This document shows positions 5,554 to 38,525 of a stretch of 56,445 nucleotides of DNA, piece after piece. The translations under genes and the position numbers were made by a program. The stretch lies in IMG/VR virus record IMGVR_UViG_3300046485_000109, positions 1 through 56,445 of that record. One strand, written 5' to 3'. The stretch's first letter is position 1; every line of letters begins with the position of its first letter. Under the pieces are notes generated by a model. That model did not search any database and was not told the DNA's origin. It was given only the letters and a program-made list of their open reading frames with translations. The DNA is from a virus. Lineage: Duplodnaviria > Caudoviricetes.

Positions 5554-6198
5554 TTATTTTCTCAGTAAATCTTTTAATGTATTAGCAACAGTTTTCCAGT
5601 CATTTTGTAAATCTTCTGGAGATTTGAAATTTTCTTCTCGTTCTCTTAATCTTTTAATTTGACTAAGTGCTCTCCATAAATGATAATCATCACCTTGAGT
5701 AAGAACTTTATAGATATAATCCCACAGACGTTCATACCAAGATTTACGGAAATACCTGTCACGTAATGACCAAATTAAACCTGCATTTTCAGTCATTGGT
5801 TGAACACCAGCAAGTTCAGACGCAATCAAATTTGGAACGATTTTACGTATCATTGGCAACATAACTTTAGTGTATTCATCATGCGATTTTTTTACAGTTG
5901 CTGATCGTGTAAGAATTAGATAATCTCTATAACCATCAAGGTTGTTTTTTATTTTATACGCAGCTTGTCGTTCTTGAAAGAGTTGTCTTAATAGACTTTC
6001 ATATTTTGGATGTTTCCATTTTAGAGCAAACTTAATACCATACAATAGAACTATCTGGGAACCTTGTACATAATAAACTTGTTCATGAATACAACGTACC
6101 CAACTATCTTCATCGACAAACCAGCCAATGTTTACACCTTCTCGATGAATTTCATTACCGGCTTTATCAAAATGCACTACGACTGATGGTAAACTCAT
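5554..6198 (-). CDS. protein containing a gp23 major-capsid (Gol-region) fragment
   Basis: VMLPMIRKIVPNLIASELAGVQPMTENAGLIWSLR resembles T4 gp23 VMGMVRRAIPNLIAFDICGVQPMNSPTG. Confidence 0.7.
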   Translation of the reverse strand: MSLPSVVVHFDKAGNEIHREGVNIGWFVDEDSWVRCIHEQVYYVQGSQIVLLYGIKFALKWKHPKYESLLRQLFQERQAAYKIKNNLDGYRDYLILTRSATVKKSHDEYTKVMLPMIRKIVPNLIASELAGVQPMTENAGLIWSLRDRYFRKSWYERLWDYIYKVLTQGDDYHLWRALSQIKRLREREENFKSPEDLQNDWKTVANTLKDLLRK

Positions 6199-14207: not shown

Positions 14208-15080
14208 TCAAATTGTTAAAGAGCATATTTTCTGTTTAGTTTTAAATTCTCCGCAGCAGCTAAGACTACAAAATTTTCTATTTTTTCTAATATCTCGCTG
14301 ACAAGCTTTAAAAATAATTTCACAATTTAAACATTGTAATTCACTCCAATTTCGCTTTGGATCTAAAATCACTTTTTCTTTTTTCTTATTTTGTTCTTTA
14401 CTCCATCCAATAGGAATGATATCTATTTTTAAAATTTTAGTATTTTGTTTTGGTTTTCGTCCTTTACACCAACCAGATGGAATGATGTCTGTTTTTAATA
14501 TTTTAGTATTTTCTAAAGTATCTAAATTATAAATCCATATCTTTCCATACTGAGAATTCTTTTCACCTTGCTGATGACAATTATTTTTATGAATTAAACG
14601 AATTTTTAGTTTCGTTTCATCAGAATGTGTTTTTCCAGTAAAAGTATCATATTTTATTTTACCTTCAGCATGAAGTTTTTTAGCTAGTGTACTCATTCTA
14701 TTTTTATTTCGATTTACACATTCTTGATTATTCCAAAAATATTCAGCAACTTTTTTACCATTTTCTTTTCTAAATTCTTGATTTTCCATTTGATTAATAT
14801 AATCAAATCCGCCGTGACCTCCACGGCGGAGATTATAAACATCTTCCCTCAAGAGAAATTCCTCAGTTACGATTTCTTTTTCTCTTGCATACATATCTTC
14901 AGTATTACTAAAGAATTCTAGTATGTCTTTACGAAAGTTTTCTAAACCATGCTTTTCAATAGCATATTTTAACACCTTTCCTGAGCCCATATACCCATCT
15001 TCTAAATTCTGGGTTTTATGAACGCCAACATAGATCTTGTTATTCACGAGGTTAGTGATTTGATAGATGTAATAGTACAT
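14208..15080 (-). CDS. GIY-YIG homing endonuclease (Seg-like) with NUMOD3
   Basis: YIYQITNLVNNKIYVGVH...YMGSG...YNL; GKTHSDETK; late promoter at 15100-15107. Confidence 0.9.
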   Translation of the reverse strand: MYYYIYQITNLVNNKIYVGVHKTQNLEDGYMGSGKVLKYAIEKHGLENFRKDILEFFSNTEDMYAREKEIVTEEFLLREDVYNLRRGGHGGFDYINQMENQEFRKENGKKVAEYFWNNQECVNRNKNRMSTLAKKLHAEGKIKYDTFTGKTHSDETKLKIRLIHKNNCHQQGEKNSQYGKIWIYNLDTLENTKILKTDIIPSGWCKGRKPKQNTKILKIDIIPIGWSKEQNKKKEKVILDPKRNWSELQCLNCEIIFKACQRDIRKNRKFCSLSCCGEFKTKQKICSLTI

Positions 15081-16312: not shown

Positions 16313-17224
16313 ATGATAAATTTAACACCTAGATGTTCATGTATTATTTGTAGAAATAATCAATCTGCAAAAGGCATTCATTCTCATTTTATAACAGCAC
16401 ATACAAAAGAAGGAAATGATAGGATTAAAAATACTTCAAAACATTCTAGTGCTAAAGCAACAACTACTCGCAAAAATAAAAATTTTATTTTAAATTTAGA
16501 AAAATGGAAAATATATTATTCTAATCCTACTAAATGTAAACACTGCAACCAAGATCTTGATTGGTTTAAACGAAAAAATACATTTTGTGATGCTTCTTGT
16601 GCCGCTAATTTTACTAATAAATTACGTCCGGTTGGGCATTCTAGTCGAATTAAAAATAATAAAAATAGATCAGACAAACTTAAAAATTTTTATAAAGATA
16701 TTAGTAAAATAAAAATTGATACTAAAAAACAAAAATTTTCAAAAGTATCGTTTTGTCAAATTTGTAATAAATCTATTCCATACAAATTAATCAAAACGTG
16801 TTCTTCTAAATGTTATAAACAACTGCTAAGTATTAAAGCTTCAACACGAATGACACATCCACAAAATGGAAAAACTATTTTATACAATGGCATTAAATTA
16901 GGTTCATCATATGAATTAAAAGTAGCACAATCATTAGATGAATATAATATTACTTGGACTAAGCCAAAACCTTTATTATATACCGATCCAAATAATAAAA
17001 TGCGTCGTTACTTTGCAGATTTTTATCTTCCGGATTTTAATATCTATTTAGATCCGAAAAATGATTTTTTAATTAATAATACTAATCCAGAAACCGGATT
17101 TAATGATTGTGAAAAAATTAAACGGGCTGAAATTTATAATAATGTGAAGATTATAATTCTTAATAAAAATCAACTTAATTGGAATACTATAAGATTATTA
17201 ATTTGTAGGGAAGGAGGGACTTGA
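16313..17224 (+). CDS. putative homing endonuclease: Zn-finger clusters plus PD-(D/E)xK-like nuclease
   Basis: Multiple CxxC; SSYELKVA...YFADFYLPDFNIYLDPK; late promoter at 16279-16286; inverted inside a tRNA gene. Confidence 0.75.
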   Translation: MINLTPRCSCIICRNNQSAKGIHSHFITAHTKEGNDRIKNTSKHSSAKATTTRKNKNFILNLEKWKIYYSNPTKCKHCNQDLDWFKRKNTFCDASCAANFTNKLRPVGHSSRIKNNKNRSDKLKNFYKDISKIKIDTKKQKFSKVSFCQICNKSIPYKLIKTCSSKCYKQLLSIKASTRMTHPQNGKTILYNGIKLGSSYELKVAQSLDEYNITWTKPKPLLYTDPNNKMRRYFADFYLPDFNIYLDPKNDFLINNTNPETGFNDCEKIKRAEIYNNVKIIILNKNQLNWNTIRLLICREGGT

Positions 17225-17284
17225 ACCCTCACTCTTAAGAACTAGCATCTAAAACTAGCATGTCTGCCATTTCATCACCGGCGC
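17206..17284 (-). tRNA. tRNA-Leu(TAG) body with non-cognate 3' acceptor strand (disrupted or chimeric)
   Basis: CTAGT-TTTAGAT-GCTAG; variable arm; T arm intact; GCGCCGG cannot pair with local CTTCCCT. Confidence 0.75.
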
Positions 17285-19963: not shown

Positions 19964-20091
19964 TGGAGACAGAAACTGGATTCGAACCAGTGACCCGCTG
20001 GTTGGGATAATCATTTACCTACGGTCCCTTGAGAGGACAAATTATCGGAAACGATGTTATGTCGGCTGCTCTACCACTGAGCTATTCGGTC
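19964..20091 (-). ncRNA. tRNA-like RNA with anticodon arm replaced by a permuted Y-RNA core (copy 4)
   Basis: Acceptor plus CCA, GCTC-AGTGGTA-GAGC D arm, ACTGG-TTCGAAT-CCAGT T arm; insert TTTGTCCT..GGGACCG...AAATGATTATCC. Confidence 0.7.
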
Positions 20092-22178: not shown

Positions 22179-22310
22179 TGGCGCCACTGGCGAGAATCGA
22201 ACTCACTACCAACTCCTTAACCTGGATAACCATTTTCGGTCGGTTGATATACTAGACAACAAAAAGTGAAAACGACTTTTTTAGTTGCTCTACCAATGAG
22301 CTACAGTGGC
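22179..22310 (-). ncRNA. tRNA-like RNA with anticodon arm replaced by a permuted Y-RNA core (copy 5)
   Basis: Perfect GCCACTG/CAGTGGC-G-CCA; D and T arms; insert TTTTTGTTG..CAACCG...GAAAATGGTTATCCAGGTTAAG. Confidence 0.75.
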
Positions 22311-36595: not shown

Positions 36596-37474
36596 CTACT
36601 GATTTGAGAACAAGTTATCAATTTTAGAAATTCTTTCTTTCTTAAGAAAATCACCAATCGCTCTACCTTTCAAATGAACAATAAACTCTGACAACTCTTT
36701 GACAGTTACTGTGCTATAAGCATTCATCATATCAGTAGCTCTATCTGGGTTTTTCATATTGTCTTGATTTACAGTAGTCCACAGGTAAAAAACTGTCCAG
36801 AATCTCAGTGAATCATGTGATACTCTAAACTCATCAAATAATTCAACTGTTGATTTACTATCGACATCATACAGTTCTTCAAACCTTTTATAATCCAATG
36901 CCAAATCTCTTACACTATTCGGAAACTTCATTTTTTCACAAACAGAAACAATCACATCTCTTTCAAACATCGTAAAAATATAAGCCAACCGTTCAGTAAC
37001 TGTTTTCAACTTAGGAACAAAGGTTACAATTTTAATATAACTTGGCGAATCTAAAAATTTATCTAGTTCAGGAAAGATAACATTTAGTGCATCCGTAATA
37101 ACTAGTACACCCAAAAAAATGATTGGGTCTTTTTCACTAAAAGCTTTTTCAAATTCAGCAACAATCCGTTCTTTTGACAAATGTTCGAGTTCTCCATTTT
37201 GAACAATTTCTTTCATTAACTCCATCGTTCTTTTATCAATTTTAAAGTCTGGATATCTAGCAGCAAACCGAGCAACTCGCAATACTCTCAATGGATCTTC
37301 GGCAAAAGCAGGTGATACATGTCTCAAGATTTTATCTTCCAAATCTTGACGACCATTAAATGGATCAATAATAATTCCAGTATTTTCATCCAGAGCCATG
37401 GAATTTATAGTAAGGTCTCGTCTTGAACTATCTGAGATTAGGTCTACAAAATCTTTTACTGTTATCATATTCAT
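36596..37474 (-). CDS. cca: CCA-adding enzyme, C-terminal part
   Basis: RRDLTINSMA, IDPFNGRQDL, FAEDPLRVLRVARFAAR, ERIVAE; own GAGGAG SD and promoter. Confidence 0.92.
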   Translation of the reverse strand: MNMITVKDFVDLISDSSRRDLTINSMALDENTGIIIDPFNGRQDLEDKILRHVSPAFAEDPLRVLRVARFAARYPDFKIDKRTMELMKEIVQNGELEHLSKERIVAEFEKAFSEKDPIIFLGVLVITDALNVIFPELDKFLDSPSYIKIVTFVPKLKTVTERLAYIFTMFERDVIVSVCEKMKFPNSVRDLALDYKRFEELYDVDSKSTVELFDEFRVSHDSLRFWTVFYLWTTVNQDNMKNPDRATDMMNAYSTVTVKELSEFIVHLKGRAIGDFLKKERISKIDNLFSNQ

Positions 37475-37532
37475 TGTCAAATCTCCTCACTTTAGTATAA
37501 ATAAATTATATCACACTTCTTTAGGAAAGTAT

Positions 37533-38525
37533 ATGAAAGATAAAATTTTAGAAGAATTTTCGGTTTTAGATTGTATCATTAGCCATAAAAAATTAGAAGA
37601 ATATGTGGATTTTTGTTTGTCTAATACAATATCAAATAAAAATAACTCATCATCACATCATATTTTGCCAGTTGCAAAAACATTGCCTTTTAAGAAATTT
37701 GAAAATTTGAAAGATTATCCATGGAATAAGGCTGAACTTTCATATTATAATCATTATTATGCTCATTTCTTATTAGCTCAAGCGATAAACCATTTATCAG
37801 TAATTACTGCTTTTTGTGGAATGCATAAAAAAGATATAATTTTAGAAAGACTTTCCGAAAATGATTTAATTAATGAAAGCGAGTTTAATGATCTTTACAC
37901 AAACCGAAATGTTCTTATAAGCAAATGGCGTAAAGAAATTATTTCTATTGATGGGGTTGAAATGTCTCGAGCTAAATTCTATAACTTAAATAGAATTGTT
38001 CCTCAAAAAGAAAAAGACAAACACATCAAAAGAATGAAAGAAAATAATATAGTTCATTTACCTGGCGTTTTAGAGAAATTAAGAAAAACTAAATCCGAAA
38101 CTTTTATAAATGGTAAAAATTTAGATACTATTTCAGCTGAACTTGCCGCAGAAACTATGAAAAAAGAATTCTATTTAGAGTCTGGCGAATTAACTACTAG
38201 ATATAAAGAAAATGGAAGAAAAATTTCAAAAACTTTAAATACAGAATTTTTAGATAGTAATGGTAATATAACAACACTTGCTAAAGAAAAAGGAAAGATT
38301 ATCCAGAAAACCTTGATAGCTAAAGGAAAATTTTATTACCTAAAAAATGTCTTTGACTTTACTATTTGTGAACATTTGCCTGCAGTAGAAATTAGAAAAA
38401 TTTGTGCCAACCTTGAAAAGAAAACTAAAGAAAATTATTTAGGACAGGAATTGTCAGCACAAACTCTTCTTATAAAAAATGGAAAAGAACACTTTATCGG
38501 ATCTTATGTTGAAAGATGTCCATAA
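37533..38525 (+). CDS. HNH homing endonuclease inserted in cca, opposite strand
   Basis: HHILP...N...L....HYYAHFLL; late promoter TATAAATA at 37496-37503. Confidence 0.85.

Follow-up and report, generated by a model that had tools for sequence, protein, structure and literature searches.

A tRNA-framed RNA gene with a candidate Ro60-docking stem in a jumbo-phage fragment: a possible unpermuted relative of YrlA-type Y RNAs

Introduction

What kind of RNA is produced from a gene that keeps the D arm, T arm, acceptor helix and CCA end of a tRNA and carries a long structured stem where the anticodon loop should be? The question is raised by element A, a tRNA-shaped RNA gene of 128 nt, including an encoded CCA, at positions 19964–20091 on the minus strand of a jumbo-phage fragment of 56,445 bases from IMG/VR (hereafter the window, meaning the whole stretch of DNA analysed; ~16% complete according to CheckV). 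Element A scores 40.9 bits against the Rfam tRNA model (19967–20091; gathering score 29) with an insert of 66 nt in its anticodon arm, the structured insert, of roughly 60 nt, occupying the place of the anticodon loop. The original prediction, made from the letters of the window alone, had described this locus as a divergent chimera of a tRNA and a Y RNA. Its anatomy, its covarying helices and its collinear likeness to a phage Y RNA that is linked to Ro are reported here, as are the Ro60 genes that co-occur in the same clade, and we think it probable, with considerable room for doubt, that element A is a YrlA-type Y RNA with ordinary tRNA wiring, in which a Ro60-docking stem replaces the anticodon loop.

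Y RNAs and Ro60 are conserved from bacteria to humans. What the tRNA-like half does in bacterial Y RNAs, and how the class arose, are open questions. YrlA RNAs have been found in bacteria and in 22 phages and are tRNA mimics that resemble circularly permuted tRNAs (Chen et al. 2014, parts of PMC4201824; Wang et al. 2018, parts of bioRxiv 10.1101/312249); their occurrence in both, the mimicry and this resemblance are known already. A small subset of jumbo phages carries a TROVE (Ro60) protein, and cellular TROVE proteins with a tRNA-like partner form an RNA-repair platform (PMC7824862, in part). In the literature searched, comprising PMC6784885 and PMC4201824 without their supplements, neither the family reported here nor any Y RNA with unpermuted tRNA topology and an encoded CCA, together with an anticodon arm in some copies, is described. 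The family would be the unpermuted form in nature, with a real tRNA frame, a CCA end, a complete anticodon arm in some copies and a Ro-type stem, and it makes testable the ideas that Y RNAs derived from tRNAs and that the tRNA half interacts with tRNA enzymes, for instance RNase P and the CCA-adding enzyme, and perhaps with synthetases. The family further supplies candidate RNA partners for orphan Ro60 genes in a clade of 330–370 kb soil phages and ties these genes to phage RNA-repair gene sets. Such gene sets are thought to counter host defences that cut tRNAs.

A conserved, covarying RNA family

Further copies of the inserted stem came from pattern scans of IMG/VR filtered by tRNA context, and two covariance models were built, R1 from three copies and R2 rebuilt from 28. 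Together, R1 and R2 matches amount to 39 copies in 16 uncultured viral (jumbo-phage) records and five metagenome contigs, a distribution that extends to related jumbo phages, as the original prediction had proposed to check. Ten viral records hold 22 of the copies (two in the window, four in G001, two in G002, one in G003, three each in G004, G005 and G006, one in G007, two in G008 and one in G009), the five contigs hold eight, and nine lie in six further records that were reached via their Ro60 gene. The copy number of 2–4 per genome is shared with YrlA/YrlB and counts in favour of a Y-RNA identity. Within the window, R2 matches element A (54.2 bits, E 1.5e-10) and a sister chimera, element B (22179–22310, minus strand; 57.2 bits), with no third match. 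The two elements align over a shared core, as had been anticipated, and the exact 12-mer AAATGNTTATCC is present in both and nowhere else in the window; with two mismatches allowed there are 44 occurrences against 41 expected from shuffles, so that only the exact form is informative.

The core comprises 57 nt and two helices, P1 and P2. In the alignment of 28 sequences, which was fitted to the model itself, 96.0% of the cells are paired, with double compensatory changes at 10 of 13 pairs; the covariation score was matched by none of 500 shuffles, and slid controls pair at 29–55%. RNAalifold, applied to the same alignment, returns the same two helices and one extra pair, between the last base of the leader and the first T of TTATC. 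Invariant or near-invariant positions across the family spell AAACA, UCG, UUUG, C-CG, UGG and UUAUC, all of which element A has. Since the conserved U·G and G·U pairs would be mismatched on the other strand, the fold belongs to the RNA of tRNA sense. The core is a conserved, covarying RNA family, and the argument of the original prediction, that its retention in a second tRNA scaffold speaks against a random insertion, is upheld.

Scans with R2 of Serratia phage BF, RaK2, GAP32 and RsoM2USA gave no matches, and blastn of two other family cores against deposited phages returned only noise at E=6. A pattern scan of cellular genome contigs gave chance-like matches, and among the at least 120 listed none had a T loop downstream.

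Anatomy of element A

Read in the sense of the tRNA, element A opens with the acceptor 5' strand GACCGAA (20085–20091), which pairs with TTCTGTC (19968–19974) at six of seven positions, the mismatch being C4:U69. The D arm GCTC-AGTGGTA-GAGC (20068–20082, from the Rfam alignment) is near-identical to that of a YrlA-like RNA of the Streptomyces phage TunaTartare, which is discussed below. It is followed by the anticodon-stem-like 5' strand GCCGA (20062–20066), which pairs with CCAGC (19997–20001) at just 3/5 positions; the resulting GCNGN/NCAGC pattern with a mismatched third pair recurs in the family copies L190, L192, L332 and L330a and in the TunaTartare Y RNA. The A-rich leader CATAACA (20055–20061) corresponds to the family consensus aAaCa (AAACA), with A at alignment column 5 in 28/28 sequences, and in the consensus fold from RNAalifold its last A forms a pair with the T that opens TTATC. 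The P1 5' strand TCGTTTCC (20047–20054) faces the 3' strand GTAAATGA (20011–20018), the latter aligning with GTAATTGG of the TunaTartare Y RNA. Six of the eight P1 pairs carry double compensatory changes among the 28 sequences, RNAalifold agrees with the helix, and its base keeps conserved U·G and G·U wobbles; in element A the two strands form 7/8 pairs, which contain TCGTTT/AAATGA.

Between P1 and P2, the 5' side of the internal loop, GATAATTT (20039–20046), ends in an invariant TTT before P2 (columns 24–25 are T in 28/28); its counterpart in the YrlA consensus is the A/U-rich stretch ...AcUuG. The stem is capped by the P2 hairpin GTCCT-CTCAA-GGGAC (20024–20038), with double changes at four of its five pairs and pairing in 98.5% of cells; its loop is a GNRA in most relatives on our reading of the alignment. 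On the 3' side of the cap follow a bulged C, a G and a three-nucleotide linker (CG-TAG, 20019–20023), the proposed Ro60-contact region, with the C and the G each present in 27/28 sequences and L156 gapped at both columns. The tail TTATC (20006–20010), which also follows the equivalent stem in TunaTartare, keeps T, A, T and C in 28/28 sequences and its second T in 27/28. CCAA, the 3' strand CCAGC of the anticodon-like helix and the variable loop GGGTC (together 19992–20005) align with CCAAACAGC-GGGTT of the TunaTartare Y RNA, and the gene is completed by the T arm ACTGG-TTCGAAT-CCAGT (19975–19991, from the Rfam alignment) and by the acceptor 3' strand, the discriminator T73 (19967) and the CCA (19966–19964), which together span 19964–19974. 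The acceptor strands, T73, the CCA, the paired strands now assigned to P1 and to P2 with its bulged C-G, and TTATC had all been named in the original prediction, and each lies on the minus strand where it had been placed.

Element A is not a canonical tRNA, since a 66-nt insert takes the place of a 5-bp anticodon stem with a 7-nt loop and the best removal in silico restores just 3/5 stem pairs, a value that 19% of shuffles attain. In default mode it goes uncalled by ARAGORN, whose intron mode is inconsistent, giving Val(aac) for element A and Trp(cca) for element B. A pseudoknot GATAAT/ATTATC is possible in element A and is not conserved among relatives on a hand check of the alignment, and a helix between leader and tail (AUAA/UUAU) is found in few members.

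Likeness to YrlA-type Y RNAs

A BLAST search with element A finds the Streptomyces phages TunaTartare and Sham (query 74–114, 81.4% identity, E 0.4), a match that is weak on its own. At that spot in TunaTartare, the Rfam YrlA model (RF02553) matches over its full length (model 1–114, 34.8 bits, E 5.6e-6), placing a YrlA-like RNA at NC_070784.1 68383–68498, next to a tRNA-Ile and 1.8 kb upstream of an annotated Ro-like RNA-binding protein gene. Both halves of this RNA align with element A and six relatives, the consensus being D arm-A-GCnGn-A-rich-TCG-stem for the 5' half and GTAAnTGG-TTATC-(..)CCAA-nCAGC-GGGT-T arm for the 3' half. In the 5' half, the D arm-A-GCGGT-A/T-rich-TCG-ATTAC of TunaTartare stands against D arm-A-GCCGA-CATAACA-TCG-TTTCC in element A; in the 3' half, GTAATTGG-TTATC-TTCCAA-ACAGC-GGGTT-T arm stands against GTAAATGA-TTATC-CCAA-CCAGC-GGGTC-T arm. 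The blocks in common are thus UCG, UGG-UUAUC, CAA-NCAGC and the T arm, to which the mismatched third pair of GCNGN/NCAGC can be added, and the spacing of CG, three nucleotides and the P1 strand equals that of CG-GTT-GTAATTGG. By our count, 36 of 46 aligned positions in the 3' half of element A match TunaTartare, including GTAAnTGnTTATC and CCAAnCAGCGGGT, which makes its RNA the closest actual sequence. The TunaTartare RNA differs in ending within its Ro stem, in having a closed hairpin as the equivalent of the acceptor and in lacking a capped P2, and TunaTartare itself is a 131-kb actinophage, unlike the phage of element A.

The YrlA consensus runs through its blocks in the same order as element A: D arm, short stem, small loop, 7-bp stem, A-rich ..cUuG and terminal stem. 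Element A and YrlA RNAs have in common a tRNA-like D arm, T arm and acceptor helix and a long stem that replaces the anticodon loop; along one strand they share D arm, short stem, A-rich loop, UCG stem and A/U-rich ..UUG, and along the other CG with three nucleotides, a stem ending in UGG, UUAUC, CAA, NCAGC and the T arm. Both occur in genomes or clades that encode Ro60. Element A therefore has the tRNA-like domain that defines YrlA RNAs, whereas the Ro stem made of paired 5' and 3' ends and the closed acceptor loop of YrlA are absent from it, because the wiring is reversed: in element A the acceptor stem has free ends and an encoded CCA, and P2 closes off the Ro-like stem, while in YrlA the acceptor loop is closed, there is no free CCA and the RNA ends within the Ro stem. 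This exchange of open and closed ends would make element A a circular permutation of YrlA. Some relatives of element A, unlike YrlA, also retain a full anticodon arm.

The long helix of element A consists of a weak 5-bp stem, an internal loop AAACA/UUAUC, a P1 of 8–9 bp, a UUUG opposite the bulged C-G, and the capped P2, and judged by its motifs and their order it probably, though by no means certainly, matches the Ro60-binding stem of YrlA RNAs piece by piece. In YrlA RNAs a conserved YUAY follows the stem and the Ro motif lies on the opposite strand, and the Ro60-binding motifs are GNCGAAN0-1G in bacteria and GGUCCGA in vertebrates (part of PMC4201824). At the corresponding place element A reads GGGACCGTAGG without the literal motif, and the near-invariant C-G (27/28) has a TunaTartare-like spacing to the next helix. 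Mycobacterium smegmatis YrlA is opened by RNase P and gains a CCA (parts of PMC4201824 and bioRxiv 10.1101/312249), so that, like element A, it is a Y RNA ending in a tRNA-like acceptor end that bears CCA; there, however, the acceptor end arises by cutting of a closed loop, which leaves two pieces or ends in both stems, whereas in element A the ends and the CCA are directly encoded.

Ro60 genes in the same clade

Open reading frames (ORFs) for TROVE/Ro60 proteins are present in six of nine tested records that bear the family (G001, G002, G004, G005, G006 and G008), including 3/3 complete genomes. The window is one of the three family-bearing records without such a gene, all of which are fragments of 16–29% completeness. 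The six proteins have 530–628 aa, are 50–56% identical among themselves and keep the DxSGS motif. Ro60 orthologues were counted at 66 loci. No Rfam family was found within ~1.5 kb of four of the TROVE genes, and in the five records scanned (G000, G001, G004, G005 and G006) no canonical YrlA scored above the cut-off, the best match reaching 29 bits, a level that tRNA cross-matches also reach in 13 of 14 control genomes. The Ro60 genes of the clade are otherwise orphans. Together with the covarying family and the collinearity with a YrlA-type RNA next to a Ro60 gene in TunaTartare, the TROVE genes in six of nine related records lend support to the chimera of tRNA and Y RNA put forward in the original prediction.

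RNA ligase genes accompany Ro60 in this clade: Rnl1-like genes occur in four and Rnl2-like genes in three of five records. An RNA-repair cassette is seen in G006 (L357:12910–19174, ~272.9–279.2 kb of G006), with cREC_REC (a cyclic-phosphate-processing receiver), an Rnl1-like ligase, a protein with OB-fold and RNA_ligase domains, a P-loop AAA_28 protein and an RNase T-like exonuclease.

Proposed mode of action and points against it

We propose that element A would be transcribed from the minus strand together with the array of tRNAs and small ORFs, that its transcript would be trimmed in the manner of a tRNA and that the product would take an L-shaped fold. The long stem could then dock on the Ro60 (TROVE) protein encoded by the clade, with the bulged C-G and the UUUG region as the predicted contact, by analogy with what the 5'-strand motif does in known Y RNAs (part of PMC4201824). 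The tRNA body may provide stability and a platform for recruiting tRNA-binding factors, and the Ro60–RNA particle may serve RNA quality control or repair during infection, beside the RNA ligases of the clade. Members with intact anticodon arms might be chargeable tRNAs that bear a Ro60 handle, or pre-tRNAs that release a hairpin Y RNA and are resealed by ligase, and the family would then be a missing link between tRNAs and Y RNAs with two modes of action, an extension that we regard as rather unlikely. If it were true, the excision case would mean that a bacterial virus splices or repairs tRNAs by a pathway linked to Ro60.

Several findings weigh against a YrlA-type identity for element A. Folded alone, it is no stabler than shuffles (z = -0.08; 79/200 shuffles fold equally well or better), the fold with cloverleaf, P1 and P2 lies at -27.7 compared with a minimum free energy of -28.5, that is 0.8 kcal/mol above it, and the isolated core closes P1 in its minimum-free-energy fold in just 5 of 28 sequences by a strict criterion. 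The original prediction had staked the stems on folding or probing; folding of element A alone lends it no support, whereas covariation backs both P1 and P2, and the support for the predicted stems of element A is comparative and does not come from folding energy. RF02553 gives no match to element A at E<=10, far from its gathering threshold of 69 bits, and just 11.9 bits for element B, over the D-arm half; the miss on element A is expected if it is a circular permutation, a rearrangement that is beyond the reach of a covariance model. The TunaTartare match, too, falls short of the gathering score (34.8 versus 69), and the literal bacterial motif GNCGAAN0-1G is absent, element A reading GACCGTAGG. 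There is no Ro60 gene in the window (~16% of the genome), and in the relatives it lies 9–90 kb from the chimeras and is never adjacent, whereas in bacteria the two adjoin. Among 23 further Ro60-encoding phage records the stem is present in six and absent from 17, and it is found in 0/6 Ro60-encoding genomes of 405–479 kb; the co-occurrence may reflect the ancestry of one clade. The four matching sequencing runs are all DNA metagenomes and none is RNA. Lastly, many members sit within intact anticodon arms with sensible anticodons, 20 of 25 scoring at least 6/7 after removal of the stem in silico against a shuffle mean of 1.39. Such tRNA-grade arms in the stem-branch class, described below, are unexplained by a plain Y-RNA role, and they keep in play the readings of the stem as an intron or as an excisable cassette.

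Alternative explanations

The stem could be an intron that some endonuclease cuts from a pre-tRNA, the halves being sealed by the phage Rnl1/Rnl2-type ligases into a working tRNA, which for element A would have a CUCCCAA loop and U73 and would hence be Gly-like. We judge this unlikely for element A, even though the junctions of other members make a case for it. All junction pairs leaving 22–23 nt between the D and T stems were scored in 25 class-I-type members, with L122 and L196 (class II or unclear), L328b (no tRNA), L329 (identical to L189), L338, L343 and the nine copies reached via Ro60, which were found later, set aside; eight of the 25 yield five stem pairs with U33 and R37, and for this result and for scores of at least 6/7 a thousand flank shuffles give means of 0.12 and 1.39 and maxima of 2 and 5. 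The restored loops CTGTTAA, CTCATAA, CTTATAA and ATTCCAA are typical anticodon loops, in six members the best-matching uninterrupted tRNA shares the predicted amino-acid identity, and the syntenic pair L128/L331b shows U29-A41 versus A29-U41 across the insert. G006, with 44 tRNAs, has none for Trp, and L190 would provide CCA; G005 is without Gly-CCC, which L189 would provide. Ligases of both types and the G006 cassette could seal the halves. Against splicing speaks that the distance of the junctions from the conserved core varies (tail 3–6 nt, leader 4–8 nt), a fixed 3' junction at tail 3, 4 or 5 suiting only subsets of the family, and that no bulge-helix-bulge geometry is seen at the junctions on hand inspection. 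EndA (PF01974) was found in 0/5 records, with archaeal controls detected, and RtcB (PF01139) likewise in 0/5; an archaeal or eukaryal-type tRNA intron was rejected for want of both the bulge-helix-bulge and EndA. A group I intron, of roughly 200 nt or more with a P3–P8 core, does not fit a two-helix insert of 57 nt, and no intron family matches at E<=10. For excision by an RNase III-type enzyme, the implied stagger is a 5' overhang and not a 3' one (hand check). The 3/5 stem pairs regained by element A are no better than many flank shuffles, as given above, and element B has A32 G33 where the related uninterrupted tRNA-Asn has C32 U33. The apparent anticodon region of the subclass of element A (TTATC-C/T-N-AA) is also present in the TunaTartare Y RNA, so that it may not be an anticodon at all, and the copy L328b is not part of any tRNA but lies immediately 3' of a CCA end. 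An uninterrupted allele of the locus was not found in contigs of the four DNA metagenome runs, where two apparent joints are short matches to D or T arms of tRNAs of other organisms, nor was an uninterrupted orthologue found among 277 tRNAs (best combined score ~38 of roughly 70).

A combination of both ideas, in which the stem is an excisable cassette, members with intact arms yield a working tRNA and a free hairpin Y RNA of ~55 nt, and members with degraded arms such as element A stay whole, would reconcile the YrlA homology with the tRNA-grade anticodon arms and would make sense of Ro60 and RNA ligases occurring together in complete genomes; possible processing of YrlA-like RNAs towards canonical tRNAs has been raised in bioRxiv 10.1101/312249 (in part). 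With neither a candidate endonuclease nor evidence of cleavage, and with variable junctions, we hold it to be distinctly improbable. A selfish or decaying insertion is the least credible account, and we give it very little weight: a small mobile element, possibly spread with GIY-YIG homing endonucleases, would have inactivated tRNA genes, and element A would be a pseudogene without RNA function. The stem does occur in at least 14 anticodon contexts and at several positions, Seg-like GIY-YIG ORFs adjoin it in five genomes, and the anticodon stems of element A and L125, like the acceptor of L125, are poor; yet P1 and P2 are kept by compensatory changes in divergent phages, strand-specific G·U pairs are conserved, acceptor stems are intact with 7/7 pairs in most members, and a Ro-linked Y RNA has the same core motifs. 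We retain the YrlA-type Y RNA with tRNA wiring as the favoured explanation of element A.

Placement of the stem in element B and other members

Two classes of placement can be told apart. In a loop-replacing class, formed by element A, L190, L192, L332, L330a, L111, L036 and L189, the stem stands in the place of the anticodon loop. In a stem-branch class it departs from the anticodon stem at positions 27/28 to 29/30 of the 5' strand, and that anticodon stem is complete but for the branch. Element B (Rfam tRNA 43.6 bits), which shares its core with element A, belongs to the latter class: the insertion interrupts the 5' strand of an anticodon arm that can still be recognised as tRNA-Asn-like. 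The flanks of element B align with a tRNA-Asn(GTT) of contig L328 that has no insert, apart from loop positions 32–33, which read AG where that tRNA has CT. The same contig holds the copy outside any tRNA, L328b (L328:1987–2042, plus strand), which starts 3 nt past the CCA end of a chimera-bearing tRNA, has the tail TTAATCC and is followed on its 3' side by a terminator-like hairpin. Two further copies, L196 (G006:108060–108115) and L122 (G001:136561–136617), lie in class II tRNA-like frames with a long variable arm, and neither junction could be parsed; L196 also carries a GCC-GAAA-GGC hairpin in its leader and, ahead of the 3' strand of the acceptor, three extra bases.

After removal in silico, some members show A34 anticodons that are unusual for bacterial-type tRNAs (ATT twice and ACT once, in L331:276–332, L330:2702–2757 and L193), and anticodon loops differ within the syntenic pairs L128/L331b and L026/L331a. 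Besides the 44 tRNAs of G006, which lacks Trp and Phe, ARAGORN finds 45 in G001 and 56 in G005. A CTA anticodon, predicted to read amber codons, is found in one or two tRNAs of each of these three records, in which TAG may be recoded.

Related systems and genomic surroundings

The stable RNAs rnaC and rnaD of T4, whose function is not known, resemble element A in lying in a tRNA cluster and in having a T arm and an acceptor-like end. A relation was rejected, since there is no kinship in sequence or structure and R1 with filters off gives no match at E<=10. Lak megaphage tRNA genes hold introns termed 'enigmatic' (Devoto et al. 2019, PMC6784885). Like the family reported here, these inserts do not belong to group I, interrupt the anticodon arms of tRNA genes in huge phages and are not known to be spliced by any route, whereas one Lak insert is described as tRNA-like and not as a two-helix stem, a comparison by description and not by sequence.

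The window has a GC content of ~32% and, besides its tRNA cluster, encodes structural proteins like those of T4 and several homing endonucleases. The best-matching sequencing runs for its DNA are peat metagenomes, and among deposited relatives Ralstonia phage RsoM2USA comes closest, with a protein identity of 27%; megablast with 6 kb of the window found no match among deposited phages. A scan for promoters and terminators found promoters at chance level. Of 18 neighbouring small ORFs tested, none indicates an RNA-cutting or RNA-joining enzyme, the only functional matches being homing/HNH endonuclease families, one weak "endonuclease" and the CCA-adding enzyme. Seg-like GIY-YIG proteins are the sole ORF family common to at least three genomes near the chimeras, with five genomes in all, including loci in G001, G003, G006 and G007; in the window, one such homing endonuclease lies in the tRNA cluster at 14208–15080 (minus strand).

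The ORF for the CCA-adding enzyme (tRNA nucleotidyltransferase; 36596–37480, minus strand) matches its profile only from position 83 of 392, the N-terminal part being absent, and its start is overlapped by an HNH/homing-endonuclease-like ORF (37398–38525, plus strand), so that within 36596–38525 the gene looks split by a homing element. At 17206–17279 (minus strand), Rfam calls a tRNA at 31.6 bits where ARAGORN makes no call. An ORF of 214 aa at 5554–6198 (minus strand) matches the Gp23 major capsid profile over just positions 1–47 and may be a fragment or a fusion.

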